Origin: Phycisphaerae bacterium
GTDB lineage: Bacteria; Planctomycetota; Phycisphaerae; UBA1845
NCBI GenBank assembly: GCA_029260215.1
Contig: JAJDDQ010000078.1
Span: 1-64,000, forward strand
Direction: 5' to 3'
DNA length: 64,000 bases
Shown: piece after piece, positions 24,111 to 58,282 of the stretch
How the letters are laid out: each line of letters opens with the position of its first letter
Numbering within the stretch: the stretch's first letter is position 1
Program-made: the position numbers and the translations under genes
The notes under the pieces: generated by a model
Told to the model about the DNA's origin: nothing
Database searches by the model: none
What the model saw: only the letters and a program-made list of their open reading frames with translations

Positions 24111-24289
24111 CACTTTGTTTTTTTCGGCATGCCCGCAATCGGTCGCCAAAGACCGGGCTTCGCGTTGACTTGCTTTCCGCCGAACAGCTATTATTCATTG
24201 CATCGCGGTTTTCACTTCGGGGAGATTATCGACCCGTCGATGGGTGCGAGCCGGCGAGTCTCAAGAATACTTTCCCTGGGGTCAACACG

Positions 24290-30758: not shown

Positions 30759-31831
30759 TGACAGGGCCGCGATTGGAAATCGATCTCGAAAAGATCCACC
30801 ACAACGCCCGCACCCTGATCGAACGGCTGGCCGAACGTGGCATCTCTGTCACGGGCGTTACAAAGGCAACCCTCGGCTCACCGGAGATCGCGAACACGTT
30901 ACTTCGGGCGGGCGTGAGTGCACTCGGTGACTCCCGAATCGAGAACATCGAGGCGATGCGTCGTGCGGAGGTACGGGCGTCTATGACACTCATTCGCTCT
31001 CCCATGGTCAGCCAGGCTGCCCGCGTCGTCATGCACGCCGACGTCAGTTTTAATACGGAACTCGACGTCATCAGCAAGCTCTCGTCCGCCGCGCAGAAAG
31101 CGCGTCGAACGCACGGGATCGTGCTCATGGTCGAGCTTGGAGACCTCCGTGAAGGCATCATGCCCGGCGATCTTGAGAACACCGTACGTGAGACACTTCG
31201 CTTCCCGAACATCGTGCTCAAGGGTATCGGCACCAACCTCGCATGTCGCAGTGGAGCGTCGCCCGACGTCAAGAACATGACCGAGCTGTCCGCGCTGGCC
31301 GATTCGATAGACGCGACGTTCGGCCCCATGCTCAGCATCGTCTCGGGGGGCAACTCCGGCAACCTGCCGTGGGCGCTCGGCGGTGTGGACACCGGGCGGA
31401 TCAACGATCTCCGCTTAGGGGAATCGCTCCTGCTCGGTCGCGAAACGCTCCATCGCCAACCGATCGACGGTCTGTACACCGACGCCATCACGCTCATCGC
31501 CGAAGTGATTGAGTCGAAGGCCAAGCCATCGCAGCCCTGGGGCGAGATCGCACAGACCGCGTTCGGCGAGAATCCACCCGCCACGGACCGGGGCCTCATC
31601 TCGCAGACGATCCTTGCCGTTGGACGCCAGGACACCGATCCGTGCGGCCTTCAAGCGCCAGCGGGAATCGAAATCCTCGGCGCCAGCAGCGACCACCTCA
31701 TCGTAGACACCGGTCGCGACCGCCCGTGCGTCGGCGCAGAGATCACCTTCCAGCTCAACTACAGCGCGCTCGTCCGCGCCATGACCTCACCCTTTCTCGC
31801 CAAGGTCGTGAAAGCCCATGTTCCCGTGTGA
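30755..31831 (+). CDS. putative amino-acid racemase, PLP-dependent alanine-racemase-fold family (DgcA-like)
   Basis: It overlaps the DUF1611 gene by 4 nt (ATGA). N-terminal TIM-barrel alanine-racemase-like fold (…GVTKATLGSPEIANTLLRAGVSALGDSRIENIEAM…VELGDLREG…). Confidence 0.7.
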   Translation: MMTGPRLEIDLEKIHHNARTLIERLAERGISVTGVTKATLGSPEIANTLLRAGVSALGDSRIENIEAMRRAEVRASMTLIRSPMVSQAARVVMHADVSFNTELDVISKLSSAAQKARRTHGIVLMVELGDLREGIMPGDLENTVRETLRFPNIVLKGIGTNLACRSGASPDVKNMTELSALADSIDATFGPMLSIVSGGNSGNLPWALGGVDTGRINDLRLGESLLLGRETLHRQPIDGLYTDAITLIAEVIESKAKPSQPWGEIAQTAFGENPPATDRGLISQTILAVGRQDTDPCGLQAPAGIEILGASSDHLIVDTGRDRPCVGAEITFQLNYSALVRAMTSPFLAKVVKAHVPV

Positions 31832-37933: not shown

Positions 37934-37972
37934 ATCGAAAAATTCCTTTGGATTCTGGTTTGTTAAATTAAA

Positions 37973-40726: not shown

Positions 40727-41066
40727 GATTAAGGCTCCTTGCATCCACCGTCACCAAACGTGCCGACGAGTTTGTTTCGAGATTCTGAACGAAACGCTCA
40801 TGCCCTCCGCCCGATTCTCGCAATTTCGAGAGTATAACGGAAGTTGCCGCGAAAAAGCGTGCCGCCAACCGGCGAGTTGACAGCTTATTACATATTGAGT
40901 TTCCTACCCAAACCGGGTATCGACCGGGAGTCGCCCGCAGCATTTGTCGAAGTTGCCGGTGTTTTCGCCGGTTGTGTGGCTGGCTGGGCTGGTGGCGGCC
41001 AGGATCGTGGCGGCGATTCCAGCGTATTCGCACCTGACGCGACGCGCGTCTTTTTTTGTAGGAAAT

Positions 41067-43226
41067 ATGGATCCCAAGCTTATCAACGCCCAGGACCGTT
41101 CGCGCGCGCGGCCGGTACCGCTGCACACTTCCGTCGCGTTTCGGCGGATGATTCGCTCCGTTCTGCCCCATCGCAAGCTGGTTTTCTCCGGAATCGCAGC
41201 CTCCATTGTCTACGCCCTGCTGCACTCTGTGAGCATTTTCGCCGCGCTGCCCGTGCTGCGCGTCATGCTTGACGACGAGGGCCTGCACGGATGGTCGGAC
41301 AGGCAACTGGCTGAGAAGAGGCTGGGGGTCCAACTCGCCTTTCCCGGTGAGAAATCGGGGGAAGACGATGCCATTCTGATCGTTCGGCAAATCGAGCCGA
41401 CCAGCCCGCTAGCAGGTTCCGCGATCCGCGTGGGTGACCTGATCGTGTCGTTGAACGGCGAGCAGCCGGGCGCGAAAGCTTGGCTGAAGCGCGTTGCGTT
41501 CGCGGAAGTCGGCGAGGAGATTCGGTTCAAAACCCGAAGCGCAGAGGGTACGACTGCACAGCCCTACTCCGTCATCGCAGCCGAGTACCCGTTGAAGCTG
41601 CGTGTGGCGCGCGATGTGCTGTCCTTCATCCCTCGTGACCCGAGCGGTTCCAATCGGCTGACCGTGTTGAAATATGTGCTGGTTTGGCTGGTCCTCGTCG
41701 TGATGTCAGCCAACGCATGCCGATTCGCCGGTGAATACTGGGTGCGGCTGGGTGTGTTGCGCGGGGTGATGGACCTGCGGCGGCAGCTTTACAAGAAGGT
41801 GCTTCGCCTGCCGATGTCGCGTTTCTCGCGCGATACCGGGGATATGGTCACGCGATTTGTGCAGGATATTCAGGAGATACAACGCGGGCTGATGTCGCTG
41901 TTCGGCAAGACGATTCGCGAACCGTTCAAAGCCGGATTCATCCTGCTCTGGGCGCTGGCGCTCGATTGGCGTCTTACGCTGGCGATGTTTGTGATCGCGC
42001 CGGGTGCGGTGCTCGTGTTCTGGAAAACCGGATCTTCCGTCAAAAAAGCCAATAAAAAGCTGCTACGCGGCTACGGGGCGATGATCAGTGCGTTGTCCGG
42101 CACGCTGGCCTCGATCAATATCGTCAAAGCCTATACCGGTGAAGCGGCGGAGCGGCGACGGCTGTGGCAGGTGGACCGGTCGATGTTCCGCCAGCAGAAA
42201 AAGATCATTCGGCTGGAGGCTATGCTGAGTCCGCTGATCGAGGTGGTCGCGATCGTGCTGGTCGCGGGCGGGGCGGTTTGGCTGGGCAAGCGCGTCATCG
42301 GTGGGGAAATCGATCTGTCCGTTTTCGGGACGCTGGTGGTGGCGCTCGGAATGCTTTTCGATCCGCTGCGCAAGCTGGCTGATGTGTACACGCGGGTTAT
42401 GCGCAGCGGAGCCGGTGCTGAACGCCTGTTCGAGCTGCTCGACGCGCCGGAGGAAACCGAACCCGACAAAACCGGGCAAAAGCTGGAATCCTTCACCGAT
42501 TCGATCGAATTTCGCGGGGTGACTTTTACCTATCCCGAATCCGATCATCCCGCGTTGTGTGAAATCGACCTGAAAGTCTGTTGCGGTGAGACGATCGCGC
42601 TGGTCGGGCGGAACGGGTCCGGAAAATCGACCCTGATGGGTCTCCTGACGCGGTTTTACGATCCGAGCGACGGCCAAATCCTCCTCGACGGCGTCGATCT
42701 GCGTTCCTACGCACTCCGCAGCCTCAGGCGAAACATCGGGCTGGTGACGCAGGATGCCGTCGTGTTTCCGATCCCGCTGGCCGACAACATCGCTTACGGA
42801 ACGCGCAATGTGAGTCGCGAGCGGGTCATGGACGCTGCCCGGCGCGCTTTCGCCGACGAGTTCATCCGCCAGACCCCTCAGGGTTACGACACGGTTCCGG
42901 GCGAGATGGGCAGGACGCTCTCCGGCGGCCAGCGGCAACGCATTTCCATCGCCCGGGCCATCCTGCGCGATCCGCCGATCCTCATCTTCGACGAAGCCAC
43001 AAGCCAGGTGGATTCGGAATCAGAGCAACGCATTCAGGCCGCCTTGAAGGATTTCGCCCAGGAGCGCACCACGTTCATCGTAGCCCATCGTCTGAGCACC
43101 ATTCGCTTCGCCGACCGAATCGTCGTGCTCGACGAAGGGCGTATCATCGACAACGGCACGCACGAGGAGTTGTCCGAGCGATGCTCGTTCTATCGAGGCC
43201 TGTGCGAAACGCAGTTGCAGGCGTGA
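41067..43226 (+). CDS. ABC exporter (fused TMD-NBD, MsbA-like) with an N-terminal TM + PDZ domain extension
   Basis: The PDZ-like segment is AILIVRQIEPTSPLAGSAIRVGDLIVSLNGEQP. It is followed by six TM helices of the ABC_membrane type and then Walker A GRNGSGKST, signature LSGGQRQR and Walker B ILIFDEATS. Confidence 0.8.
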   Translation: MDPKLINAQDRSRARPVPLHTSVAFRRMIRSVLPHRKLVFSGIAASIVYALLHSVSIFAALPVLRVMLDDEGLHGWSDRQLAEKRLGVQLAFPGEKSGEDDAILIVRQIEPTSPLAGSAIRVGDLIVSLNGEQPGAKAWLKRVAFAEVGEEIRFKTRSAEGTTAQPYSVIAAEYPLKLRVARDVLSFIPRDPSGSNRLTVLKYVLVWLVLVVMSANACRFAGEYWVRLGVLRGVMDLRRQLYKKVLRLPMSRFSRDTGDMVTRFVQDIQEIQRGLMSLFGKTIREPFKAGFILLWALALDWRLTLAMFVIAPGAVLVFWKTGSSVKKANKKLLRGYGAMISALSGTLASINIVKAYTGEAAERRRLWQVDRSMFRQQKKIIRLEAMLSPLIEVVAIVLVAGGAVWLGKRVIGGEIDLSVFGTLVVALGMLFDPLRKLADVYTRVMRSGAGAERLFELLDAPEETEPDKTGQKLESFTDSIEFRGVTFTYPESDHPALCEIDLKVCCGETIALVGRNGSGKSTLMGLLTRFYDPSDGQILLDGVDLRSYALRSLRRNIGLVTQDAVVFPIPLADNIAYGTRNVSRERVMDAARRAFADEFIRQTPQGYDTVPGEMGRTLSGGQRQRISIARAILRDPPILIFDEATSQVDSESEQRIQAALKDFAQERTTFIVAHRLSTIRFADRIVVLDEGRIIDNGTHEELSERCSFYRGLCETQLQA

Positions 43227-44598: not shown

Positions 44599-46968
44599 TT
44601 GATCCAGAGGGGAATGGAAGCCATGCACACACGACACGCGGTGGTGATCGTCTATCTGGTCTTTGCGGGCTTGCCGGCGGCGGGCGGCGAGCCTTTGATC
44701 GGTGGGGGCAAGCACGTCGAATCTCCGTCGTCGTGCCTTTCGCTGACAGACCGGGCGGGCATCGAAAGCAAACTTGCGGCGCTCCCTTCTGTCGGCCAAT
44801 CGTCAGATTCCGGCGAGGCGTCTCCGCCGCTCCTGCGTTTCTTCCCGTTGGCGGGGCGCATGTGGGGTGATCTTTACTTGTTCAACTACGTCGATCTCGA
44901 TCCGTCGGTCGAGTTCAGCGATTGGAATTGCACGAGCCGGACGTACGACGGACATCAGGGAAGCGACACGGACATTCGCAGTTTCGGGGAGCAACTGATC
45001 GGTGTGCCGGTCTACTCCGCCCAAGACGGTGTGGTCGTCGATACGCACGACGGCGAACCGGACATGAACACAGTTTGGGACAACCAGCCGGCGAACTACG
45101 TCATTATCGATCACGGGTTTGGGCGTTTGGGGTGGTATTTCCATTTCAAGAAAGACAGTGTGGCGGTTGTGGTTGGGCAGCGTGTTCGCGCGGGGCAGCA
45201 GATTGGGCTGTGCGGGTCGAGTGGAATCAGCACGGGGCCTCATCTTCATTTTGAACTGCGCGAGAACGGTGCGGTCCACGAACCATTCACCGGCCCCTGC
45301 CACGACGAGGTCAGCAGTTGGGAAGTGCAGCCCGAGGCCAGCGAACAGTCCTATGTGCATGATTTCGGATTTTCTTACCAGATCATTTCGGCTGACTGGC
45401 CTGCGGTTTGGCCCCGGACGGGTCAGGTCGGGTTGTTGGATCCGGTGATACGCGTTTGGTGGTACGGCACGGAGTTGCCGGTTGGCAGCGGCTGGCGTGT
45501 GCAGTTTTTTCGTCCGGATGGTTCGATGGCCTTCGATGGCAGTGAACAGTTCTTCGGGAATTCGATACCGTGGCGGTGGTACAGTTGGTGGTGGACGTAC
45601 AACGTCGCGGATATGCACACGATCATGGGCACGTGGCGGATGAAGTTGATCGTCAACGATATCGAGCTGGTCGACGCGCCGATCGAGGTGCGTGAGATGC
45701 GTACGGCGGATTTCAACCGCGCCCCAGCGGCGATTACGGCTGACCTTGTTCCGCAGCCGGCGTTTCCGGGTGACGCTTTGATCTGCCGGGTGGATTCTGA
45801 TCTCGTGCTGGATGATCTTGACTACGATATCGTGCGTTATGAATACGTCTGGACTGTTGACGACGAGGAAGTGAGGTGGGTGACGACGGCGGCTCACTCG
45901 GATACGTTGCCGCACCACATTGCTCATTATGGTGAAAGCGTTGCGTGTGCGGTGACGCCGGGCGACGGGCGTGATGTCGGTCCGATGTCGGTTGCGAGTG
46001 TGATGATTCAGTGCCCGCAGCGTTTTGACTTTTCGTGCGACGGTGATGTCGATCTTGTGGACTACGATTCTTTTTTTGAATGCTGGTCGGGGCCTGGGGT
46101 GCCGGCGGCTGGGATGTGCGGTCAGGCTGATTCCGATGGTGATCTCGATGTCGATCTTGCGGACTATGGGGTGTTCGTGCAGGTTTATTCGGGCGACTGC
46201 GGTGCGCGGATCACTGGTGATCCTGTGGACGAGACCGTTTGTCCGGGTGAATCGGTCGTGCTCAGTGTCGGTGTGGAAGGTGGGGAGTTGGCCTACGAGT
46301 GGATGCGTGACGGCGTGCCGATTTCAGGCGAAACGGCAGACACGTTGACCATCGATTCTGTGACGAAGCAAGACGCCGGTGCGTACGAGGTTCGTGTGAC
46401 GGGCGCGTGCGGTGTGGATTATTCGAGCGCGGCGCGCGTGAGTTTGATCGCTCCGCCGATTGTTTCCACGCAACCGTCGAGCCAATCGACGTGCATCGGC
46501 GACAGTGCGATCATGAGCATTCAGGCCAACGATGCGGGTACGCTAAGTTATCAGTGGCGGCGGAATGGGGAAGATATTGCGGGTGCGGATGAACCGGACT
46601 ATGAGGTGCCGTTTGTGGCGCAAGACGATCTGGGACAGTATTCCTGTGTGGTTTCGGACGGATGCGGTCAGCAAAATTCGTCAATGGAGGCCACATTGAC
46701 TGAGTGGCCTGAACCTTTGATTTCGGTCCAACCTTTCGGTACGACGATTTGTGAAGGCGAGTCGATCTTTCTGTTCATCAGCGCTCAGAACGTTACATCG
46801 TATCAATGGTACAAGAACGGAGAGGTTCTTCAGAACGGCGGCAGCGCATTCCTGAGCGTTTCGAATGCGTCGGTTGTGGATTCGGGCGGTTACCACGTCG
46901 TGGCGAGCAGCCCATGTGACTCCACTCAGTCCAAGGTTGCTCCGGTTCAGGTGGTCTTTTGCAGATAA
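44599..46968 (+). CDS. secreted M23 family metallopeptidase (LytM/lysostaphin-like) with dockerin-like and C-terminal Ig-like repeat domains
   Basis: M23 motifs GHQGSDTD and GSSGISTGPHLHFE are present. Acidic repeats are CDGDVDLVDYDSFFECW and DSDGDLDVDLADYGVF. About four ~90-aa Ig-like repeats (…AYEWMRDGVPISGETADTLTIDSVTKQDAGAYEVRVTGACG…) follow. Confidence 0.75.
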   Translation: MIQRGMEAMHTRHAVVIVYLVFAGLPAAGGEPLIGGGKHVESPSSCLSLTDRAGIESKLAALPSVGQSSDSGEASPPLLRFFPLAGRMWGDLYLFNYVDLDPSVEFSDWNCTSRTYDGHQGSDTDIRSFGEQLIGVPVYSAQDGVVVDTHDGEPDMNTVWDNQPANYVIIDHGFGRLGWYFHFKKDSVAVVVGQRVRAGQQIGLCGSSGISTGPHLHFELRENGAVHEPFTGPCHDEVSSWEVQPEASEQSYVHDFGFSYQIISADWPAVWPRTGQVGLLDPVIRVWWYGTELPVGSGWRVQFFRPDGSMAFDGSEQFFGNSIPWRWYSWWWTYNVADMHTIMGTWRMKLIVNDIELVDAPIEVREMRTADFNRAPAAITADLVPQPAFPGDALICRVDSDLVLDDLDYDIVRYEYVWTVDDEEVRWVTTAAHSDTLPHHIAHYGESVACAVTPGDGRDVGPMSVASVMIQCPQRFDFSCDGDVDLVDYDSFFECWSGPGVPAAGMCGQADSDGDLDVDLADYGVFVQVYSGDCGARITGDPVDETVCPGESVVLSVGVEGGELAYEWMRDGVPISGETADTLTIDSVTKQDAGAYEVRVTGACGVDYSSAARVSLIAPPIVSTQPSSQSTCIGDSAIMSIQANDAGTLSYQWRRNGEDIAGADEPDYEVPFVAQDDLGQYSCVVSDGCGQQNSSMEATLTEWPEPLISVQPFGTTICEGESIFLFISAQNVTSYQWYKNGEVLQNGGSAFLSVSNASVVDSGGYHVVASSPCDSTQSKVAPVQVVFCR

Positions 46969-47072
46969 TTGGCAGCGACTTCCGGTTTGATTGTCCGTCA
47001 GATGCGTGCCGGTTAGACTGCTCGCGGAATGGAGAACGGGCCGTCGCTGGGTTAAGGATCGGAGACTCACTC

Positions 47073-47723
47073 ATGCATCACAAAGGTCGAATCGCTCTTT
47101 CGGTATTTTCGTTGCGTGGTTTTTTCGCGAATTGTCGCGTTGCGATTTTCGCTGGCTGTGTGTTGGCCATGACCGGGTGCAGGGCGAGTCCCGCATCTCT
47201 TGCGCTCATGTTCGTCGGCGACGCCATCAGCGATGCCGAGGTCAAGGATCGTGCGCCGAAAATCGTCGGCAAGCCCGGGGCGGCTGCGGATGCCATGTTC
47301 GGCGAACGTGTTGAAACGATCGAGACCGACGGGGACAGGGTTTTACAAGTCTATGAGGTCAAGGGAGAGATTCTGTCCGAGTCCCGCTACGTCGTTGAGA
47401 CGAGAAACGGGACGATCGTAGCGCTGACCAAGACGAAGTACGACGCTGACGGCGTGGAGGATCTTATCGAAGGATCGGCTTTGAAGGACAAGCTGATCGG
47501 CAGGGGGCCGGCGTTTTGCAGTACGGAGGGTGAACTGGGTCGCCCTGTGCTCAGAGGCAAGAGCCTCGACACGGGCGAAGACGTATACATGTACGACGTG
47601 AAGAACTGGACCAATCTTCGCAACGCGCGCTACGCCGTTCTGCGCTTTCGGGATGGCAAGTGTTCGGAGCTTCGTCTGATCGGCGTTTCAGCCTCGACCA
47701 AGAAAAATCCGATTCGCAAGTGA
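47073..47723 (+). CDS. hypothetical lipoprotein
   Basis: MHHKGRIALSVFSLRGFFANCRVAIFAGCVLAMTGC is a signal peptide with a lipobox. RBS AAGGA/GGAG lies upstream. Within track ORF 46959..47723. Confidence 0.5.
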   Translation: MHHKGRIALSVFSLRGFFANCRVAIFAGCVLAMTGCRASPASLALMFVGDAISDAEVKDRAPKIVGKPGAAADAMFGERVETIETDGDRVLQVYEVKGEILSESRYVVETRNGTIVALTKTKYDADGVEDLIEGSALKDKLIGRGPAFCSTEGELGRPVLRGKSLDTGEDVYMYDVKNWTNLRNARYAVLRFRDGKCSELRLIGVSASTKKNPIRK

Positions 47724-47763
47724 TGTGGCCGCTTTGTCGGAGCGTGCGAGTCGGACAAACTGT

Positions 47764-48720
47764 TTACGGTAACGGGCTGCGCTGCGATGCTTCCCGAGCA
47801 AGCAAGGCTGCGCCCACCAATCCCGAATAATCGCCGAGCGCGTTCAACTCGACGCGAACATTTTCAGGTTTCAGTGAACTGGGCACCTGCTCGTACAGAC
47901 GTGAGGCTGTGTGAACGATTGAGGGGATTCCTCTCGCGACGCCGCCGCCAATAATGATCGTGTCCGGTGCGTACACGTGCGTGATTTGCACAAGAGCGGC
48001 ACACAGCGGGCGGGCCAACTGTTGAATCAATCGTGCCGCGCTTGTGTCACCATTCTGGAAGCGAACTTCGATTTCGCCAAGATCGTCACCAATTTCCATC
48101 GCGGCGGCGGCATGGCGGATTGCGGGGGCTGCCACCAGCGACTCAAGGGTTCCGCGGACGCCGGTGTTGCAAAGCGGTGCGTCGTCGGCTGTGTCACAGA
48201 TCAGATGCCCGAGGTGCCCGGCGCTGTGGTGCGTGTGGCGAAGCGGTTGCCCGTCGAGGATGACGGCTCCGCCGACGCCCGTGCCGAGGGTTAGATAGAC
48301 GAAACGTTTCGGTCTTTTTTCGTAGGCACAGAATTCCCCCCAAGCGCCGGCGACCGAATCGCAATCCAGGATCGTGATCAAACCAGTCCGTTCGACCAGC
48401 CGATCGCGCAACGGCAGGCCGACCAGAAACGGCAGATTGACCGCGTGAATGATGGCTGACCGCCCGGGTTCGAGTACGCCGGGCAGTCCGACACCCATCG
48501 CCTCCGGCGCGGGGAATGAATCGGTCTGCTGACGGCAAAAACGATAGGCATCCTCAAGCCATTGAACGATATCCTCACCATCGTTGCCGATGGGGGTCTC
48601 TCCGCAAAGGTCCGCCATTACCCGGCCGAACGCATCGACGATGGCCAACCGCGTAAACGTACCGCCGATGTCCACGCCAACGTAGTTTTTGGTTTCGTCC
48701 GTCTCGTGTTTGTGTCCCAT
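47764..48720 (-). CDS. ROK family sugar kinase (glucokinase/GlcNAc-MurNAc kinase-like)
   Basis: VGVDIGGTFTRLAIVD is the ROK N-terminal ATPase motif. CxCGxxGC-like Zn motif is also present (HHSAGHLGHLICD). Confidence 0.8.
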   Translation of the reverse strand: MGHKHETDETKNYVGVDIGGTFTRLAIVDAFGRVMADLCGETPIGNDGEDIVQWLEDAYRFCRQQTDSFPAPEAMGVGLPGVLEPGRSAIIHAVNLPFLVGLPLRDRLVERTGLITILDCDSVAGAWGEFCAYEKRPKRFVYLTLGTGVGGAVILDGQPLRHTHHSAGHLGHLICDTADDAPLCNTGVRGTLESLVAAPAIRHAAAAMEIGDDLGEIEVRFQNGDTSAARLIQQLARPLCAALVQITHVYAPDTIIIGGGVARGIPSIVHTASRLYEQVPSSLKPENVRVELNALGDYSGLVGAALLAREASQRSPLP

Positions 48721-48796
48721 CTGAATACCTCGCCGCACAGTTTGGCGTTTGCTTTCGACGGGTGCAACCTTGCTGTGATTGGATTAGCCTGCTTGA

Positions 48797-50269
48797 ATGG
48801 CCGCGATTGATGCTTTGGTGTTGGGAACGTATTTCGTCGGGATTCTCGCGGTCGGGTTTTGGGCCGGTCGCGGTGAGCGCGACAGCGAGGATTTCTTCCT
48901 CGGCGGGCGGAATCAGCATTGGCTTGTCGTTGGGCTGTCGATTCTCGCGACCGAGTTGTCGGCCATCACGTTTATCGTCGTGCCGGGCACCGCTTATCAC
49001 GGGGATTGGTCCTACCTGCAATTGTACGTCGGTGCCTTCATCGGGAAGCTCGTCATCGTGCAGCTGCTGCTCCCTGCGTTCTATGGCGCGCGGGTGACGA
49101 CGGTGTACGAATTTCTGGGTCAGCGATTCGGGCCTTGGACACGGACGACGGCTTCACTGCTTTTCTTCGCTTCACGCATCGTGGGAAGCGCCTTGCGTCT
49201 GTTGGCCGCCGCGATCGCGATCAGCATTGTGTTCGATTGGCCTCTGGTGACGGTGATCGTTGGTTGTGCGGTGGTGGCGATGGCGTACGCGACGTTTGGG
49301 GGGATCAAGGCCATCGTGTGGACGGACGCGCTGCAGGCAGTCGTTTTCCTTGTGAGCGCGACGGCAGCTTTGGTCTATCTGTTCGTTACGACGCCTGGGT
49401 CGGTTGTCGAGAATCTTCAATTCGCCCACGACGCTGGCAAGCTGCGCGTGTTCGACTGGAGTTTGAACCTCAACGACGAAAGCGCGTTCGTCGTTCTGTT
49501 CGTTCATACGTTGTTCCTCAACGCGGCTGTGTTCGGCACGGATCAGGACATGACACAGCGCATGCTCACCTGTCGCGATATCAAACAAGGGCAGCGCTCG
49601 CTGATGTTCAACATGTTCATCGGGCTTCCGGTGGTCTGCCTGTTCCTGCTCGTCGGCGTCATGCTGTGGGTACACGATGCAGCCAACGGCACCGCGAGCG
49701 TTACGGAAGCCATGAACGCGAACGTGGTGTTCCCGCACTTCATCGCCAACGGTCTGCCAGCCGGCGTGGGATTGCGTGGGCTGTTACTGTCCGGCCTGTT
49801 TGCGGCTGCGATGTCGAGCCTTGATTCCGCTTTGGGTGCGTTGTCTTCGAGCGCGGTGGTTGATTTCTATCGCCCTTACTTTGCGCCGAAACGTTCGGAA
49901 CGACATTATCTTCGCGTCGCCCGATTGTTTACAGTCGCGTTCGGTTTGATCCTGGTTGCCGTCGCGATCGGTTTCATCGGTTCGAATAATCTTCTGTGGG
50001 CGGTGTTCGAGTGGGCGGGGTTGTTTTTTGGTGCCTTGCTCGGCGTGTTTCTGCTTGGCGTCACCACGCGAACCCGTGGCAGCGACCGGTTCAACGTGTT
50101 GGCGATGCTCAGTGCGATCGCCATCGTGGGCGCGCTCAAGCTGTGGCAGGATCCGAACGCGCCGATCGTAGCTTGGCCTTGGTGGATTGTGATTGGGACG
50201 GTGTGGACGTTCGCGGTCGGCGGACTATTTCGGTCGGGGGATATTGTCGGGGATGCAGCCGGTGTTTGA
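48797..50269 (+). CDS. sodium:solute symporter family (SSS) transporter
   Basis: About 13 TM helices with an SSF signature region (…GGRNQHWLVVGLSILATELSAITFIVVPG…). Confidence 0.85.
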   Translation: MAAIDALVLGTYFVGILAVGFWAGRGERDSEDFFLGGRNQHWLVVGLSILATELSAITFIVVPGTAYHGDWSYLQLYVGAFIGKLVIVQLLLPAFYGARVTTVYEFLGQRFGPWTRTTASLLFFASRIVGSALRLLAAAIAISIVFDWPLVTVIVGCAVVAMAYATFGGIKAIVWTDALQAVVFLVSATAALVYLFVTTPGSVVENLQFAHDAGKLRVFDWSLNLNDESAFVVLFVHTLFLNAAVFGTDQDMTQRMLTCRDIKQGQRSLMFNMFIGLPVVCLFLLVGVMLWVHDAANGTASVTEAMNANVVFPHFIANGLPAGVGLRGLLLSGLFAAAMSSLDSALGALSSSAVVDFYRPYFAPKRSERHYLRVARLFTVAFGLILVAVAIGFIGSNNLLWAVFEWAGLFFGALLGVFLLGVTTRTRGSDRFNVLAMLSAIAIVGALKLWQDPNAPIVAWPWWIVIGTVWTFAVGGLFRSGDIVGDAAGV

Positions 50270-51133
50270 GGCGAGTCGCGCTTCGGCTCCGGGGTGATCG
50301 AGGTTGGCGAAGTGCATGACGATCGCGGTCTTGACGCGACCGCCGGCGCGTTTGAGCAAGTCCACGGCATCCGTACGCGACAGGTCGGTGACCTCGCATA
50401 GAATACGCTCAGCCCGGTCGGTGAGCTTGGCGGCTGCACCGGTGTTCAGGTCGGTCATCAGGTTTCCGAAGACCTTGCCGATGGAAATCATGCTCAGCGT
50501 TGTGATCATGTTGAGGGCGAGTTTGGTGGCGGTTCCGGCTTTGAGGCGCGTGCTTCCGGTGATGATCTCCGGACCCGTCAGAATGCGAATGGACACGTCG
50601 GCGGTGTCGGGGGCTTGCTCAAACGGTACGCAGGCGAGAAAGACGGTCTTGGCACCGTCGCGTTTGGCTTGTGCGAGGGCACCGTGGACGAATGGTGTCG
50701 TTCCGCCCGACGCGATGCCGAGTACGACGTCGTTGAAATCGACCGTTTTGTCTGCAATGGCGAACGCTCCGTCGTCGGCTGAATCTTCCGCGCCTTCCGC
50801 GCTGCGACGCATTGCGTCCCATCCGCCGGCGATAATTCCCTGCACCATGTGCGGATCCGAGAGAAACGTCGGCGGGCACTCGGACGCATCGAGTACGCCA
50901 AGTCGCCCGCTTGTCCCCGCGCCGACGTAGATCAACCTTCCGCCTGCGCGAAACGACTCCGTCACCAAGTCGACCGTTTTGCAAATCGCGTTCCTGGCAC
51001 GCGCGACTGCCGCCGGCACGCTCGCGTCTTCGGTCGCCATGACATCGAACGCATCAGCCACCGACAGCGTGTCGATAAGTCGCGAGCGTTCGTTGCGTTG
51101 TTCGGTGAGAAGGTGTCCCCGGTCTTCATTCAC
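50225..51133 (-). CDS. murQ: N-acetylmuramic acid 6-phosphate etherase
   Basis: SIS domain LIYVGAGTSGRLGVLDASECPPTF with the catalytic Glu context, about 300 aa. Confidence 0.85.
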   Translation of the reverse strand: MNEDRGHLLTEQRNERSRLIDTLSVADAFDVMATEDASVPAAVARARNAICKTVDLVTESFRAGGRLIYVGAGTSGRLGVLDASECPPTFLSDPHMVQGIIAGGWDAMRRSAEGAEDSADDGAFAIADKTVDFNDVVLGIASGGTTPFVHGALAQAKRDGAKTVFLACVPFEQAPDTADVSIRILTGPEIITGSTRLKAGTATKLALNMITTLSMISIGKVFGNLMTDLNTGAAAKLTDRAERILCEVTDLSRTDAVDLLKRAGGRVKTAIVMHFANLDHPGAEARLASNTGCIPDNIPRPK

Positions 51134-52466
51134 GTTCGATACTCGATAGCTGCGTCAGTTCGATATCGTCGAAGTAGTGTCGCAGGATCTGTTCGTATTG
51201 GAAACCGTTGATGGCCATTCCAAGGGCACCGATCTGACACATGCCCGCGCCATGTCCCCAGCCCCCACCGCGAAACGTGAAGCGGGTCGGTTCGCCGGCG
51301 TTGTCTCGTGCAATATCAACCACGAACGCGCTGCTGTACAGAAACGAATCGCACAAAGCGTTGCGGATGTTGTACTGGTCTTCAATAATCGTGGCTACTT
51401 GGCGACCGTCTCTGTTGATGTAAACGATTTTCACTTCCACGGCTCGCCCACTGAACCCCCGTCGCGTCACGACGAGATCGTACACGCTTTGAAGGTCGAT
51501 GCCGTCGTCGCCGAACGTTGCGAAGTGTTTGCGACGGAGAATATCCGCGAATTCGTCGGGGCCGTAACTCACCTCCCAGCGGAATCGCCCGCAACCGTCG
51601 TCCACTCTGCCCAGGAATTTCGGCAGGTCGCCATCCGGCACAACGGAAGGGCTGCAGAACGCATCGCTTCCCTGCTGAAGATATTCCTCCATGTTCGCAT
51701 CCGCAATCGGGTACAACCCATGCAATGCTGTGCCCGGCGGTGCGTCGACCACGCTGCGTTGGCCGGGTTTGCGATTCGACCACACGTGTTCCGGCGATTC
51801 ACTCACACCGCCGCAGCTCTTGGAATAGTTCGCGTCGACAATCACGCGTCGCCGTGCGATTTCAGGGTCGGGCGCCGTCATAACGATACCGGCTGTCTTC
51901 TCGACTGCGCGACGTGCTGCATTGGTGATCGCCCCCAAACCTTGGAACCGCTGACAACAATCATCGTTGCAAAGATCGATGCCAAGATTGGCGTGTTTGC
52001 GCTCACTCGCAACCGCCGTCCAGGATCGGGCCACGACGCATTGTGCTTTGAGGAACTCGATCGGCGCATCGCCGCTCATCTCGGCTGTGATGACTCCTTG
52101 CAGGTACTGTTCAAGCGGAAGTTCGTTGACGATGAACAAATACCCGTTGTGACTCGTGATTTCAATCAACCCTGACAGGGCTGTGTCGATATGCCTGGAC
52201 CAGTGAAAACCGCGACCGGCTGGGCAATCATGGACGACGGTCTTCTGTGCAGCGTCCCGCGATACGATTCGGACGATGGGTTGCCCATCGGTGTGGACGC
52301 GACCGTCGTCTGCGTATCCGGCAACGCAATCGCCATGTGCGCGATAGGTGATACGATCTCCGTCTGATGTCCCGCCCGCCGGTGCAAGCGTCAGGTCCAC
52401 CGACGTAATCTTGTCTTGCGGAAGGATGATTCCGATCTTGATGTCGACGTCTGAATTCGTACTCAT
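51126..52466 (-). CDS. SpoIID/LytB domain protein (cell-wall amidase enhancer / lytic transglycosylase-like)
   Basis: LEQYLQGVITAEMSGDAPIEFLKAQCVVARSWT matches the SpoIID core (EEYL.GVV..EM…EALKAQAVAART). It overlaps the murQ start by 8 nt. Confidence 0.7.
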   Translation of the reverse strand: MSTNSDVDIKIGIILPQDKITSVDLTLAPAGGTSDGDRITYRAHGDCVAGYADDGRVHTDGQPIVRIVSRDAAQKTVVHDCPAGRGFHWSRHIDTALSGLIEITSHNGYLFIVNELPLEQYLQGVITAEMSGDAPIEFLKAQCVVARSWTAVASERKHANLGIDLCNDDCCQRFQGLGAITNAARRAVEKTAGIVMTAPDPEIARRRVIVDANYSKSCGGVSESPEHVWSNRKPGQRSVVDAPPGTALHGLYPIADANMEEYLQQGSDAFCSPSVVPDGDLPKFLGRVDDGCGRFRWEVSYGPDEFADILRRKHFATFGDDGIDLQSVYDLVVTRRGFSGRAVEVKIVYINRDGRQVATIIEDQYNIRNALCDSFLYSSAFVVDIARDNAGEPTRFTFRGGGWGHGAGMCQIGALGMAINGFQYEQILRHYFDDIELTQLSSIERE

Positions 52467-52518
52467 TTCTATCGTTGCGATTCAGGAACAAGGGAAACAT
52501 CAAGCCTCGGTGCCCAGT

Positions 52519-53034
52519 TTACGAACTTGGCGAGACGCATTGCTCATCGAGGAATTCTCTCCATCGATCTGTTTCCGCAAAATCTTTCAATATTCGATTT
52601 CGTTCAATGAGGAATGAACGCATGTATCTTGTTAGAAAAACGCGCTCCGCGATGCGGCCGAGAGCCCAGAGGGGGGCTTGAAACCTGAATTCATCCGTCA
52701 TTTCCGTTAGGCCGGAGATTTCTTTGAATAGGTGCGTGTGTTTCATGGATGCAAATGCGCCATCCACCATTTCATCCGTAAAAAACAAGGGACGTTCGAA
52801 TTCAGTTAATCTGATTTTCAACTGCTGCGTCACGCCGAAGTGTTTTGCTTGCCAAGTGACTTCCTCTCCCAGCCCGATAAGGCCGGTCGTCTTTCCCTCA
52901 ATCGCTACTTCTCTCGTGCCGGAGGTTGATGCCATGTGTGCGTCAATACTTCGGGATAAATCAAAAACTCGTTCTATCGGAGCGTTGACGATTGTTCTGA
53001 TGTTAATTAACGGCATAGCCTTCATACTCAGCAT
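52519..53034 (-). CDS. SRPBCC superfamily protein (polyketide cyclase/START-like)
   Basis: INIRTIVNAPIERVFDLSRSIDAHM… is a typical Polyketide_cyc2 N-terminus. GC is locally low (~48%). Confidence 0.6.
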   Translation of the reverse strand: MLSMKAMPLINIRTIVNAPIERVFDLSRSIDAHMASTSGTREVAIEGKTTGLIGLGEEVTWQAKHFGVTQQLKIRLTEFERPLFFTDEMVDGAFASMKHTHLFKEISGLTEMTDEFRFQAPLWALGRIAERVFLTRYMRSFLIERNRILKDFAETDRWREFLDEQCVSPSS

Positions 53035-53681
53035 ACGTCCAGGTCTTTCGCAATGTCACGCCCGCACTCTGGACAGCGAAGCCCGCCGGTGAGGCCAAAC
53101 AGATCGTAACCGCAACATTCGCACACGCGCAGCCCATACCGTGCCAGCGCCCGGCGGACGGACCTCAGGCGGCCGATCCTCGCCACGTCCCACGGCATGA
53201 TCCACTTGTAGATAGCGAAAATGAGAAAAACGGGTGCCGCCGCCGAAAACATGATTCGCCCGCCGGTGATACCAGAGGCTCCGAAGATCATCCACGGTAT
53301 CGGAATGATCAGCGGAGCGATGCTGTAGAATGGACGCACTTCATAGTGCAGCGCCGCGCCGTGTTCCGCCTCCTCGATTCGCAGCGCGATCCGTGTCCAT
53401 GAGTTGACCGAAGCCGTCCGCTGCCGGAAGTTGAAACCATCCACCGATTCACGCCCGATCAAGTTGTCGGCATCGAGCACGACTCGAACAGCCTGGCGAA
53501 TCTGTGCCGCGTCGGCGGTCGTTTGCCATCGTTCGCGAAGGATGGCGGGACCGTTTCGATAGTACCAGCCGGCAAAGCGGTAGTATGCAGCAGCCTCAAA
53601 CCAAAGGGCCATCTCGAAGACCACGATGAGGATCAGCGGCACAAGAAGGTCCGTCGGGATTCTGGAGAGAAACGAAGTCAT
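53028..53681 (-). CDS. membrane protein with C-terminal Zn-ribbon (family member)
   Basis: C-terminal segment is CECCGYDLFGLTGGLRCPECGRDI. There are 4 TM helices. It overlaps the SRPBCC gene by 7 nt. Confidence 0.55.
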   Translation of the reverse strand: MTSFLSRIPTDLLVPLILIVVFEMALWFEAAAYYRFAGWYYRNGPAILRERWQTTADAAQIRQAVRVVLDADNLIGRESVDGFNFRQRTASVNSWTRIALRIEEAEHGAALHYEVRPFYSIAPLIIPIPWMIFGASGITGGRIMFSAAAPVFLIFAIYKWIMPWDVARIGRLRSVRRALARYGLRVCECCGYDLFGLTGGLRCPECGRDIAKDLDVC

Positions 53682-53948
53682 GCTGTCCTCACGGCGACGA
53701 TCATCGTTGGGTCCGTGACACTTCCGGCGGGGCGGCCACGGTTTATCAGAACCGCGACACTGAGAGCGCCCAATGCGGAAGCACGAAGGGAGCGGCCGAG
53801 CCGCGAATGTGTTACACGTTTTTTCGTCCGTACCAGCCGTTCTGATAAGAGATTTCGAATTCCGCCTATGTTGTCACAAACCCACCATCGTCTCGCCGCC
53901 GATTAACCCGTGGTTGCCGAGCGCCCGGCGTGGTATCGTAATACGATC

Positions 53949-55001
53949 ATGCAGCTCTCGACGGCCCGCATCACCGTGCATACGCGACATCCATTTCGCA
54001 TCGCCCGCCCCGGTGCCAGTGTGGACGGCTGCGATGTGCATCGCGTTATTGTCCGCCTCGAACACCAAGGCCTCTGCGGATACGGTGAGGCTGCGCCGAC
54101 GCCCTATTACAACGAGTCGCTCGATTCTGTCGAGGAGGTTGTGCAACGAGTGCAACTTGAAGGCCTCCTCGGCGGCGACCCGCGCGACATCGAGGGAATC
54201 GTCACTCGATTGCTCAGCGCATTCGATGATGGGCGTGCAGCCGTCTCCGCTATCGACGCAGCTCTGCACGATTGGAACGGTCGCCGCGACAGCACACCTG
54301 TCTGGCGACAGTTGGGGCTGGACCCGTCGCGCACGCCGCCCACTTCGTTTACCATAGGCCTTGGTGACGCGGGGACGATCGAACGGAGAGTGCGTGAAGC
54401 CAAACCATTCGACATCCTGAAGATCAAAGTCGGCACGGATCGCGACGAAGAGATACTCGAAGCTGTTCGCCGTGCTGTTCCAACCAAAACGATTCGCGTC
54501 GATGCCAACGCTTCGTGGCGACCGGACGAAGCCCTCGCGAAAATTGAAGCGTTCGCACGTTTCAATCTCGAACTCGTCGAGCAACCTATCCCAGCCGCTT
54601 TGCACGAAGACCTCACGCGACTCAACAAGCGCAGCCCGATACCGATTTTCGTCGACGAGGACAGCGTTTGCTCGGAGGATTTGCCTCGATTGGCTGGTTG
54701 CGTCGCGGGTGTCAATGTCAAGTTGGCCAAGTGCGGCGGTATTCTCGAAGCGTTGCGCATGATCCGCCTCGCGCGAGAATTGGGCCTGAAGGTAATGCTC
54801 GGCTGCATGGTCGAAACTTCGCTCGGTGTATCCGCCGCAGCGCAAATAGCGTCGCTTGCGGACTTCGTCGATCTGGACGGATCGCTGCTGTTGGCCGACG
54901 ATCCGTTCCACGCCGTACGGATTGACGGATCGATCGTTCGCCCGGCCGACGGCGTTGGACTGGGCGCGAACGCTGGCTGTTTTTTCGAGGAGTCATCGTG
55001 A
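53949..55001 (+). CDS. L-Ala-D/L-Glu (dipeptide) epimerase, enolase superfamily (MR/MLE family)
   Basis: KIKVGTDRDEEILEAVR…IRVDANASW…LELVEQPIPA…IFVDEDS…VNVKLAKCGGI are the MR_MLE N/C motifs with the KxK…D…E…D…K catalytic pattern. Confidence 0.75.
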   Translation: MQLSTARITVHTRHPFRIARPGASVDGCDVHRVIVRLEHQGLCGYGEAAPTPYYNESLDSVEEVVQRVQLEGLLGGDPRDIEGIVTRLLSAFDDGRAAVSAIDAALHDWNGRRDSTPVWRQLGLDPSRTPPTSFTIGLGDAGTIERRVREAKPFDILKIKVGTDRDEEILEAVRRAVPTKTIRVDANASWRPDEALAKIEAFARFNLELVEQPIPAALHEDLTRLNKRSPIPIFVDEDSVCSEDLPRLAGCVAGVNVKLAKCGGILEALRMIRLARELGLKVMLGCMVETSLGVSAAAQIASLADFVDLDGSLLLADDPFHAVRIDGSIVRPADGVGLGANAGCFFEESS

Positions 55002-55999
55002 TACGCAGGATCGCGGTAATGCTGATTGTTGTCGTATCGACGTATGTGCTCGGCAGCACGTGCAACATGCCCGACCGGCGATCCGCCCCGTCATCCACGC
55101 GCGAGGACGACAGCATCATAGTCTGTGGCCAGCCGTTCCACACTGGATCGCGCGTCGTGCTCTGGCACGATTCCGGCGGCTTTAACGGTTATCTCAAGCG
55201 CTCGTTTCGCAAGCCAAACGTTGTTCTGCCAACCCATCCCGCACCGGGTTGCAATACGCCGGAACGCTACGGTGTGCGGGCATGCTTCCTCGACGAACAA
55301 AGCCAACCGACGAAGCCGTCGGCTCGCGCGGAGCGGCAACTTATCGAGCGGAACGTTGACCGAATCGTCATGCATTACGATGCAGCCGGAACGAGCAGCC
55401 GATGTTTCGAAATCCTGCACGACGATCGCGGGCTGAGCGCACACTTTCTTGTCGATCTGGACGGCGTGATCTATCAGACGCTGGATGTGCGCGAACGGGC
55501 CAGGCACGCCGGAACCTCGAACGACCGCTCCGTTGGCGTTGAGATTGCCAACGTCGGTGCCTACCGCTCACTCGAAGAACTCCGTGCCGCCATCGGTCGC
55601 GTGGACGCAGCCGGTTACGGAACCGCCTATCGACGCCTATTGGACGAAGGGCCTGTGACCGGAACGATCCAAGGACAGGAGTTGTACCAGTATCGCTTCA
55701 CGGACGCCCAATATATCGCCCTCGCGAATCTGACGCGTGCGCTGGGCGAAGCCTTGCCGCGCCTCCGCCCGGTGTTTCCCACGGAGGCCGGCGGCGAGGT
55801 TCGGAGCACGACGTTGTCGGAGCGGGATATTACGTCCTTTAAGGGCATCGTCGGGCATTGGCACGTAGCCACCCACAAGGTAGACCCCGGTCCGTCCTTC
55901 GATTGGCACAGGTTGATTCGGGAGTTGAACCGGGGCGGATCGGATCCGATCGGATCGGGCCGATCATCCTCCGTTGACGGAATCGACGTCGGGCGTTAG
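54998..55999 (+). CDS. N-acetylmuramoyl-L-alanine amidase, Amidase_2/PGRP (AmpD-like), lipoprotein
   Basis: IVMHYDAAGTSSRCFEILHDDRGLSAHFLVDLDGVIYQTLDVRERARHAGTSNDRSVGVEIANVG carries the Amidase_2 Zn ligands (H…H…). N-terminal signal is LGSTC. Confidence 0.8.
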   Translation: MIRRIAVMLIVVVSTYVLGSTCNMPDRRSAPSSTREDDSIIVCGQPFHTGSRVVLWHDSGGFNGYLKRSFRKPNVVLPTHPAPGCNTPERYGVRACFLDEQSQPTKPSARAERQLIERNVDRIVMHYDAAGTSSRCFEILHDDRGLSAHFLVDLDGVIYQTLDVRERARHAGTSNDRSVGVEIANVGAYRSLEELRAAIGRVDAAGYGTAYRRLLDEGPVTGTIQGQELYQYRFTDAQYIALANLTRALGEALPRLRPVFPTEAGGEVRSTTLSERDITSFKGIVGHWHVATHKVDPGPSFDWHRLIRELNRGGSDPIGSGRSSSVDGIDVGR

Positions 56000-56861: not shown

Positions 56862-58028
56862 CTAATGCTTGATGATCCAATTGACGTAGACGTTGGCCGG
56901 ACGGGTTTCTGCGTCACCGCCGCTGTTGATGGTGTGTCCGTGGCCTCCGCCCGAACCCGCGGAATGAGCATGACCGCCGGCTGAGCCGATGCTGTGGCTG
57001 TGACTGCCGCCGGATGGGATATTGAGCAAGCCCAGGAAGCTGCCTGTGCCCGCCTCCGGTTCGCTTGGAAAACCGGTATTGTTGCCGTCTCTGCGCATGC
57101 TGGCGAAGTGCTGGTGAGAACCGCCGCTGCTGCTGTGTGAATGCGACGACACTGAACTGATCGAATGCGTGTGGTTTGAGACTGAGCTTGCAGAGAAGTT
57201 CGAGTTGGGTCGGCTTGTTGCGTCGGCTTGCAGGGAGCCGACGATGTTGCCAGTGTTGCCGCCGCTGTTTGAGGCTGTCCGTTGAGTTCGGTTGGGATCG
57301 TTCGACGTCGCACCGGACACGCCGCGCAGGAATCGCCCGCGCATGTCGGGCAAGTGAAACGTAGTAGAGCCGTCACCGCTGCCATAAGCGGTGCCGATCG
57401 ACGCGAACAAGTCCGCGAACGTCGCACGGCTGACTGTCGATCCGTCACACACCAACCATCCGTCCGGCGCAGCCGCTCCGCCGTAAGCGAGCATCGCCCC
57501 GGCTGGTACGAGCTGTCGTGGAAGGTATTGGCCAACGGTATCTGAATCGAGCGCGTGGTCCGCCTCCAACGCATGCTCAGCCTCGGCGGCTCGATCGGAA
57601 TCCAGCGCACGATAGACAAACGGCGCGCTGGCCAATCGCTGGTCCGGGGACAACTGAAACACACCGTGTCCTAGTTGATCGTCGAACCAGATGCGCAGCA
57701 AGACATCGTCGTTTTCGAAAACGGTTGACGGCAATGCAGCCATCGGCGATTGGCCGAGTGCGACGCTGTACACCCCGTTTACGACGCCGAGGCCCAGAGG
57801 CGCTATCGGCCTATTGGTCGTGCCGATTTCGCTGCCGTCGTTGGTCCAGAGGTTGACGCCGTTCACACCGGGTGCGATCAGCGCAAAGTAGAAGTTTCCC
57901 GTACCGGTGAATCGTTGCCCGTCGACCGCCACCACGCCCTGGTGGCTGATCTGTGCGGGAATCTCTGCGCGAAGGAGGCCCGACGCGCAAACCAGAATTA
58001 CGATGCCAAACACGCCGATTCGTCTCAT
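56862..58028 (-). CDS. secreted phage-tail-collar (MdpB-like) domain protein with Gly/Ser/His-rich tail
   Basis: GWLVCDGSTVSRATFADLFASIGTAYGSGDGSTTFHLPDMRGRF matches the collar domain. C-terminal segment is …ETRPANVYVNWIIKH. The start is MRRIGVFGIVILVC (58028), with GGAG 7 nt upstream. Confidence 0.7.
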   Translation of the reverse strand: MRRIGVFGIVILVCASGLLRAEIPAQISHQGVVAVDGQRFTGTGNFYFALIAPGVNGVNLWTNDGSEIGTTNRPIAPLGLGVVNGVYSVALGQSPMAALPSTVFENDDVLLRIWFDDQLGHGVFQLSPDQRLASAPFVYRALDSDRAAEAEHALEADHALDSDTVGQYLPRQLVPAGAMLAYGGAAAPDGWLVCDGSTVSRATFADLFASIGTAYGSGDGSTTFHLPDMRGRFLRGVSGATSNDPNRTQRTASNSGGNTGNIVGSLQADATSRPNSNFSASSVSNHTHSISSVSSHSHSSSGGSHQHFASMRRDGNNTGFPSEPEAGTGSFLGLLNIPSGGSHSHSIGSAGGHAHSAGSGGGHGHTINSGGDAETRPANVYVNWIIKH

Positions 58029-58282
58029 TGCTTCACTCCAGACAGAAAAGACCGATGTCGCACAAAGCCCCGCCGTCCGGTACAGACCGCCCGCGCGACA
58101 ACCAAACGCAACGATCGCGGAGCGCGCACCGCTCCCGACCTCTGATGGACTTGTGAAACCCCAAGTACACGGTACACAATCAGCCTGTGCGTTGCAATCA
58201 TCTTCGCCGAAATCGCTAAACTGAAGCACGCGCGACGCGAAAATTCGCCGACAATGCACTGAAACCTCAATGCTTCAAGACG

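Follow-up and report, generated by a model that had tools for sequence, protein, structure and literature searches.

The stretch of DNA analysed here, referred to as the window, comprises 64,000 nucleotides (nt) from a Phycisphaerae bacterium (Planctomycetota; UBA1845), positions 1-64,000 of contig JAJDDQ010000078.1 in assembly GCA_029260215.1. Between positions 44599 and 55999 it carries a group of peptidoglycan-related genes, the core of which is probably a cluster for the salvage and catabolism of N-acetylmuramic acid (MurNAc) that operates independently of the phosphotransferase system (PTS). Gene identities were taken from an open reading frame (ORF) listing together with Pfam and NCBIfam scans that applied curated cut-offs. 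These scans recovered all seven genes that an original prediction had named for this region, each where it had been placed, along with a small lipoprotein ORF, an SRPBCC ORF and a zinc-ribbon ORF that had not been mentioned. Along the window, the genes are as follows:

44599-46968 (+): M23 peptidase (Peptidase_M23) with a signal peptide and three Ig domains
46959-47723 (+): small lipoprotein ORF, with a likely start near 47073
47764-48738 (-): ROK-family sugar kinase (PF00480, 153 bits)
48797-50269 (+): sodium:solute symporter, SSS (PF00474, 131 bits; TIGR00813, 194 bits, cut-off 184)
50225-51133 (-): MurQ, N-acetylmuramic acid 6-phosphate etherase (TIGR00274, 354 bits, cut-off 302; NF003915, 362 bits)
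51126-52466 (-): SpoIID/LytB-like protein (PF08486; TIGR02669, 154 bits, cut-off 83)
52519-53034 (-): ORF with a weak SRPBCC match
53028-53681 (-): membrane/zinc-ribbon ORF
53910-55001 (+): enolase-superfamily (MLE subgroup) racemase/epimerase (MR_MLE_N and MR_MLE_C)
54998-55999 (+): Amidase_2 protein (N-acetylmuramoyl-L-alanine amidase; PF01510, 74 bits) with a signal peptide and the lipobox-like motif LGSTC

The GTG start of murQ overlaps the stop codon of the SpoIID-like gene by 8 nt (GTGAATGA), and the two genes are translationally coupled, as had been proposed. The start of the amidase gene likewise overlaps the upstream enolase-superfamily gene, by 4 nt. The ROK and SSS genes diverge from a spacer of 58 bp, and the SSS gene converges on murQ, the two 3' ends overlapping by 45 nt (50225-50269); an identical 45-nt overlap is present in a relative, L004. 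The strands alternate from ROK (-) to SSS (+) to MurQ (-), so that this triad is made up of three transcription units and does not form a single operon. Scans of the locus for promoters and terminators gave no signal exceeding the shuffled background.

The conservation of this arrangement was examined in the three closest genomes (L003, L004 and L005), chosen by an SSS identity of 65-69%. The core of ROK, SSS, MurQ-SpoIID and MLE-Amidase_2, in some cases with a DUF1611 gene, is kept in all three, and so is its orientation, with ROK divergent from SSS, SSS convergent with MurQ-SpoIID, and the enolase-Amidase_2 pair divergent. The genes that flank the core are unrelated from contig to contig. 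Because the core recurs while its flanks differ, the grouping goes beyond chance, and the examination of synteny that had been suggested as a check supports it. Assemblies of Phycisphaerae and of other Planctomycetota also supply the nearest homologues of the window SSS. The M23 peptidase and the small lipoprotein are missing at the corresponding position in all three relatives, and for this reason the peptidase is not counted as a member of the cluster. The functional grouping originally put forward is thus retained for the core but not for the M23 peptidase, which lies outside the conserved unit. The slot between SpoIID and the enolase-superfamily gene is variable: in the window it is occupied by the SRPBCC and zinc-ribbon ORFs (52519-53681), whose membership of the cluster is doubtful, and in L004 and L005 by a DgcN-like DUF1611 gene. 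A fusion-like "SSS" of 792 residues (P0005, L005:10001-12379) was rejected as a misannotation in a high-GC genome, the gene call running antisense through murQ; the true murQ of L005 is intact on the opposite strand.

At the level of family, sequence comparison establishes the identities of MurQ, the SSS, the ROK kinase, the SpoIID domain and Amidase_2, as well as the conservation of the cluster. The gene context of the SSS was then surveyed by tblastn, neighbour clustering and Pfam in one genome per species, which gave 48 loci with SSS relatives; neighbours lying no more than 6 kb from SSS were tallied over 53 loci. MurQ was among them at 15 of the 53, in five lineages, followed by GH3 (12/53), Amidase_2 (7/53) and GH20 (4/53). 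The recurrence of SSS with MurQ is not attributable to chance, since MurQ is normally a single-copy gene. Distant SSS homologues (32-38% identity) were found in specific peptidoglycan-sugar contexts in several lineages. The order SSS-AnmK-MurQ occurs in Planctomycetales ZRK34, a ROK::GH3 fusion precedes MurQ-SSS in a Phycisphaeraceae metagenome-assembled genome (L035), and a lipoprotein Amidase_2 is divergent from SSS at four Planctomycetota loci (L033, L034, L038 and L039). In sister Phycisphaerae, whose SSS shows 54-58% identity, the gene immediately upstream of SSS encodes a GH20 hexosaminidase that has no signal peptide. This direct 5' position of GH20 relative to the SSS orthologue is seen in L001 (8148-11500), where the two genes share one base, and also in L007 and L008.

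Eight Alteromonadaceae genomes (loci L036, L037, L041-L044, L049 and L052) carry a lipoprotein GH3, an SSS-BadF/G kinase-MurQ-NamZ series, an RpiR gene and a D-lactate-dehydrogenase-like gene. In these operons NamZ is a lipoprotein, the regulator is RpiR/MurR-like, the dehydrogenase-like gene is of the flavin adenine dinucleotide/iron-sulfur type, and the BadF/G kinase matches a solved MurNAc/GlcNAc kinase (8ZO3, 5e-17), GlcNAc being N-acetylglucosamine. The set looks complete for MurNAc catabolism and resembles a proteobacterial counterpart of murTKQ; no description of an Alteromonadaceae SSS-kinase-MurQ-NamZ operon was found in the literature searched.

MurT of Tannerella forsythia is an SSS-superfamily protein (PMC5790795) and has been characterised as a transporter of free MurNAc (PMC7670621). 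Its stand-in in our comparisons was a Bacteroides SSS, P0179, from a cluster of the gtf-lytB-ampG-murK-murQ type, which was reached from 61 residues of T. forsythia MurK available in PDB alignments by way of Bacteroidota contigs and a stitched SSS. The P0179 cluster, SSS-GT2/DUF4922-SpoIID/LytB-AmpG-MurK-MurQ, mirrors the Tannerella operon gtf-gtf-lytB-ampG-ybbC-murT-murK-murQ (PMC5388701). The window protein belongs to the sodium:solute symporter superfamily, with PF00474 and TIGR00813 both above cut-off. In phmmer searches it scored 230-235 bits against SSS linked to MurQ or to an amidase, and 183-185 bits against P0179 and its relative L123 (167-186 over comparisons). The scores were 158 bits against SiaT, 153 against human SMCT1 and 122 against vSGLT, and 53, 42 and 31 bits against PutP, YidK and PanF of Escherichia coli. 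A bootstrapped neighbour-joining tree placed the window clade together with Verrucomicrobiota, Bacteroides and MurQ-linked SSS in one assemblage (48-53% support), with SiaT as its sister (85% for the combined group) and PutP, PanF, YidK and vSGLT outside. These results support the assignment of the window SSS to a symporter assemblage that is recurrently encoded beside MurQ and MurNAc-specific enzymes.

The ROK kinase is, weakly, a candidate MurNAc (or GlcNAc) 6-kinase, linked to the pathway by position only: its gene and that of the SSS diverge in each of the four clade genomes (the window and L003-L005), and in L035 a GH3-fused ROK domain is encoded ahead of MurQ-SSS. Among the NCBIfam models the NanK subfamily fits it best, with 124 bits where 283 are required, followed by ROK_glcA (110 bits, cut-off 260) and NagK (75 bits, cut-off 380). 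The original prediction had likened this kinase to the MurNAc kinase of Tannerella. The likeness does not extend to family, since MurK of Tannerella belongs to the BcrAD/BadFG kinases and not to ROK (PMC5790795, PMC10465942). For the window kinase, PF01869 (BcrAD/BadFG) reached 21.5 bits, short of its cut-off of 31.5, and neither T. forsythia MurK (8OQK) nor K1058 (8OQW) was among its PDB matches. The locus suggests that MurK has been replaced here by a kinase of the ROK family.

The protein encoded with MurQ aligns with SpoIID of Bacillus anthracis and Clostridioides difficile (4RWR, 5I1T) over the catalytic-Glu motif and GWGHGxGxCQ, and shares with the Bacillus/Clostridioides proteins the Cys/His positions of the zinc site and the C-terminal motif GHGxGxCQxGA. 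Export was judged by Kyte-Doolittle hydrophobicity, for which the amidase and M23 proteins reach 2.4-2.5. The maximal ORF of the SpoIID-like gene has no hydrophobic N-terminal segment, its 15-residue maximum being 0.81, and such a segment is likewise lacking in the orthologues of L003-L005 and L050 and in Bacteroides LytB. Since it has no export signal, an ordinary role as a secreted murein hydrolase is improbable for this protein. A single-sequence AlphaFold model of it had a mean predicted local distance difference test score of 32.6.

A metagenome scan with a six-member alignment extended the family to 80 loci. A hydrophobic stretch was absent from 70 of the 75 complete N-termini, nearly all of which start with EPx(I/V)xVGI. 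All 78 family members compared have the catalytic Glu (E129), and about twenty further positions are likewise invariant among them. An AmpG-like MFS permease gene was found downstream at 39 of the 80 loci, mostly directly; GT2/DUF4922 occurred at 34, mostly upstream, and SSS at 10, mostly downstream and often directly. GH3 (10 loci), NamZ (9), MurK (4) and MurQ (2) were also nearby, AnmK was near the SpoIID-like gene at none of the 80, and most of the linked neighbours are on the same strand. At three loci, GT2, DUF4922 and the SpoIID-like domain form a single polypeptide of 1260-1288 residues (L091:3236-7102, L109:3340-7122 and L125:2652-6476). DUF4922 is a domain that GDP-L-galactose phosphorylases also carry, and the fusion speaks for a role in the cytoplasm that is connected with sugar nucleotides. 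The family thus looks active and is very probably cytoplasmic, and it is tied to inner-membrane permeases for muropeptides or MurNAc and to MurQ.

We consider it possible, though doubtful at present, that the SpoIID-like protein is a new cytoplasmic enzyme of wall-sugar recycling that acts on sugar imported by AmpG or SSS. One possibility for its reaction is the opening or forming of the 1,6-anhydro ring of MurNAc, another the cleavage of an imported disaccharide. If this were true, an ordinary 6-kinase (MurK or ROK) and MurQ could complete the route without AnmK. It would then explain the presence of lytB in the Tannerella operon, the growth of Tannerella on 1,6-anhydro-MurNAc (anhMurNAc) despite its having no AnmK (PMC7670621), and the close association of SpoIID-like genes with those for permeases, MurK and MurQ in Bacteroidota, Planctomycetota and further phyla. 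No paper treating SpoIID together with MurQ was found in the literature searched.

On the peptide side, the amidase had been described as AmpD-type, which is imprecise. It carries a signal peptide and the LGSTC motif, its N-terminal hydrophobicity maximum is 2.54, and it scores 52 bits for the AmpD equivalog NF008758, below the cut-off of 143. The Amidase_2 homologues beside SSS in other Planctomycetota (L033, L034, L038 and L039) have clear lipoboxes. The window amidase is accordingly a predicted AmiD-like periplasmic lipoprotein and not an AmpD-like protein.

The enolase-superfamily enzyme had been proposed to be a dipeptide epimerase. A gene of this superfamily is indeed present, but its score is higher for DgcA (248 bits, cut-off 400) than for YcjG (160 bits, cut-off 343), and both are below cut-off. 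Its best PDB match is a Bacteroides thetaiotaomicron protein (3IJI, 221 bits), which we take from its PDB title to be a dipeptide epimerase. The enzyme contains a VDLDG (DxD) motif, which is presumably diagnostic of dipeptide epimerases. Since a DgcN-like neighbour occurs in L004 and L005, a DgcA-like role was raised to comparable likelihood, and an N-acetyl-D-Glu racemase now seems about as likely as an L-Ala-D/L-Glu epimerase. Under either role, the enzyme would recover the D-Glu of the stem peptide. The likeness to the DgcN-DgcA pair lies in DgcA being the best NCBIfam match of the window enzyme and in the DgcN-like DUF1611 gene that L004 and L005 add beside it. The differences are that the scores remain below the curated cut-offs (295 bits against 480 for the DgcN equivalog in L004) and that in the window the DgcN-like gene is not adjacent, a distant paralogue lying 20 kb upstream. 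That paralogue is part of what may be a second module for D-amino acids or dipeptides (27608-31831):

27608-28864 (-): M19 membrane dipeptidase
29568-30758 (+): DgcN-like DUF1611 protein (167 bits)
30755-31831 (+): ornithine-racemase-like pyridoxal phosphate enzyme (351 bits, cut-off 480), whose gene shares 4 nt with that of the DUF1611 protein

Taking these assignments together, a route can be proposed in which the periplasmic Amidase_2 lipoprotein would strip stem peptides from muropeptides released by turnover or scavenged. The SSS would then import the sugar freed by this amidase and other periplasmic hydrolases, be it MurNAc, anhMurNAc or possibly the GlcNAc-MurNAc disaccharide, as its gene context in several phyla suggests. 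In the cytoplasm, the candidate ROK kinase would form MurNAc-6-phosphate, which is the weakest step of the model, and MurQ, assigned at the level of a curated equivalog, would convert this to GlcNAc-6-phosphate and D-lactate. The SpoIID-like protein may act on the imported sugar in the cytoplasm, and the enolase-superfamily enzyme may recover D-Glu from the stem peptide. The PTS-independent salvage route through SSS, kinase and MurQ that was originally suggested is therefore largely upheld, as regards the conserved unit and the type of transporter; the kinase, which is not MurK, and the division into three transcription units depart from the Tannerella pattern, and orthology of the transporter to MurT is tentative.

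Several observations weigh against this route. NagA, NagB, NagZ, AnmK and MurK were not found in the window, and neither were NamZ, GH20 and GH3. The alternation of strands makes a single transcript of ROK, SSS and MurQ impossible. With regard to the transporter, the window SSS and the Bacteroidota MurT-type P0179 share only 28-30% identity, and the node that joins it to the Bacteroides MurT-type proteins has 37-53% bootstrap support, the deep nodes of the tree being weak. Its orthology to MurT is accordingly tentative. A clustering with proline, pantothenate or sialic-acid symporters, the outcome that would have spoken against the original placement, was nevertheless not seen, the scores being far higher against MurQ-linked and MurT-type SSS than against PutP, PanF or YidK. 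Verrucomicrobiota homologues of the SSS (about 40% identity) have housekeeping neighbours only, among them HisG, Dus, EF-P and T2SSE, and the coupling of GH20 to SSS means that the substrate could be a GlcNAc-containing disaccharide and not free MurNAc. As for the kinase, it reaches no equivalog or subfamily cut-off, that for glucokinase included, and its best PDB matches are glucokinases (3VOV, 2e-31). A search for the ROK zinc motif GHx(9-11)CxCGxxGCxE showed that the window protein reads LCNTGVRGTLE at residues ~175-200, where Thr replaces the second and third zinc-binding Cys, so that two of the three are lost. The orthologues of L003-L005 keep CxCGxxGCLE, the loss being confined to the window genome; it may reflect a weakened enzyme or a variant of the assembly.

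The GH20-SSS coupling also bears on an alternative in which the pathway is the same and the labour is divided differently. The SSS would be AmpG-like and import GlcNAc-(anh)MurNAc, the ROK protein would be a NagK-like GlcNAc kinase, and MurNAc-6-phosphate would come from the SpoIID-like protein and a kinase, or from AnmK or MurK encoded elsewhere. In favour of this arrangement, a GH20 without a signal peptide is translationally coupled to SSS in the sister Phycisphaerae, and the SpoIID-like gene is followed, mostly directly and on the same strand, by an AmpG-like MFS gene (39/80 loci) or by SSS (10/80). ROK kinases moreover include GlcNAc kinases, and the window protein weakly matches NagK-type entries. 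Set against this, no hexosaminidase of the GH20 or GH3 family was found in the window, the GH3 and NamZ proteins of the Alteromonadaceae are lipoproteins, so that a monosaccharide is imported there, and the MurT of Tannerella transports free MurNAc (PMC7670621). We regard this division of labour as rather unlikely.

It is very improbable that the SSS and the ROK kinase form a module for sialic acid and N-acetylmannosamine, of the SiaT and NanK type, or for the uptake of another sugar, and merely lie beside the MurQ operon. SiaT is the best solved relative of the SSS (5NV9, 157 bits) and the N-acetylmannosamine kinase subfamily is the best NCBIfam match of the ROK protein (124 bits), but both matches are far under the family cut-offs, and the window SSS scores 75 bits more against MurQ-linked SSS than against SiaT. 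The named neighbours of SSS at the 53 loci are MurQ, GH3, Amidase_2, GH20, NamZ, MurK and AnmK. No NanA/NanE-like family came to light, either within the window or in the neighbour clusters that were named, although no direct search for NanA or NanE was made. The conservation of the ROK-SSS-MurQ-SpoIID block in L003-L005 also argues against two modules that are adjacent by accident. An accidental grouping of unrelated housekeeping genes would accommodate the alternating strands, the lack of conservation with the cluster shown by the M23 gene and by both small ORFs, and the promoter and terminator scans that gave nothing over background. We give it hardly any credence, given that the order of the core is kept in three genomes with unrelated flanks and that the links of SSS with MurQ, of SSS with the amidase, and of SpoIID-like genes with MurQ or a permease each recur independently in other phyla. 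The salvage of MurNAc through SSS, kinase and MurQ is thus the reading that we retain.

The genes for RodA and PBP2 lie 2 kb downstream of the cluster, which is consistent with a peptidoglycan wall in the host, and the organism probably makes its own wall. MreBCD beside RodA-PBP2 was considered and rejected, the ORFs there encoding a HEAT-repeat protein and a CN-hydrolase. A gene for a 465-residue protein with a phage tail-collar domain (56862-58259, -) separates the amidase gene from RodA-PBP2. Upstream of the core, the M23 peptidase has Asp-rich dockerin/EF-hand-like repeats (DGDVDLVDYDSF, DSDGDLDVDLADYGVF) ahead of its Ig domains, and a protein of 1139 residues (24107-27526, +) ends in a dockerin_1 domain. 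Two tandem paralogous DUF5118-DUF5117-DUF4953 met-zincins of 909 and 923 residues (35204-40744, -) are encoded upstream of an ABC exporter gene (40944-43226, +).

Planctomycetes came to be accepted as peptidoglycan-bearing only about a decade ago, and no dedicated study of wall recycling in this group was found in the literature searched. The cluster offers a concrete route by which a Phycisphaerae bacterium may recover or feed on MurNAc. It further suggests that SSS-type uptake of MurNAc is not confined to Bacteroidota, related symporters being encoded in the MurK-MurQ-NamZ operons of Alteromonadaceae and the AnmK-MurQ operons of Planctomycetales. The wider value of the locus may lie in the cytoplasmic SpoIID-like family, a conserved and unstudied member of recycling clusters that include the Tannerella operon.

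Among known systems, SiaT (5NV9) with NanK is comparable in that SiaT is the solved structure closest to the window SSS and that both transporters would have N-acetylated, carboxylate-bearing sugars as substrates. The two transporters nevertheless share 26% identity (123-158 bits), and Arg135 of SiaT, which we take to be the residue that binds the carboxylate, aligns with Gly in the window protein. With SpoIID of Bacillus/Clostridioides and LytB, the window protein has in common the SpoIID domain, the catalytic Glu in (S/A)EM, the Cys/His residues of the zinc site and GHGxGxxQxGA. It differs from the Bacillus/Clostridioides proteins in having no membrane anchor or signal peptide and an extra insertion of ~70 residues, and in being co-operonic with the cytoplasmic MurQ; its family is also found with inner-membrane permeases and, in some cases, in GT2-DUF4922 fusions.

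In E. coli, recycling relies on AmpG, NagZ, AmpD, AnmK and MurQ, with MurP for free MurNAc and the epimerase YcjG. The window cluster resembles this system in its MurQ end point, in an Amidase_2 protein that would remove the stem peptide and in an enolase-superfamily enzyme that would handle the L-Ala-D-Glu part. In contrast to the E. coli MurQ route (PMC5371407), it has no AmpG, MurP, NagZ or AnmK and uptake would be by SSS, and its amidase is a predicted exported lipoprotein like AmiD, unlike the cytoplasmic AmpD.

The closest parallel is provided by murTKQ of T. forsythia, in the ampG operon Tanf_08345-08385, where an SSS importer also replaces the PTS transporter MurP and where a sugar kinase, MurQ and lytB (SpoIID/LytB) are present in the same cluster (PMC5790795, PMC5388701). 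As in Tannerella, MurQ is encoded with a transporter and a kinase, being adjacent to SSS in the window and in L003-L005. The locus works like the Tannerella system yet departs from it in two defining features: the kinase is a ROK protein where MurK belongs to BcrAD/BadFG, and the genes form three transcription units where those of Tannerella form one operon. AmpG, NamZ/YbbC and the GT2/DUF4922 gene are absent from the window cluster, which has in addition an amidase that is a lipoprotein and an epimerase related to D-Glu. Moreover, whereas Tannerella is a MurNAc auxotroph, the host of the window cluster probably makes its own wall.

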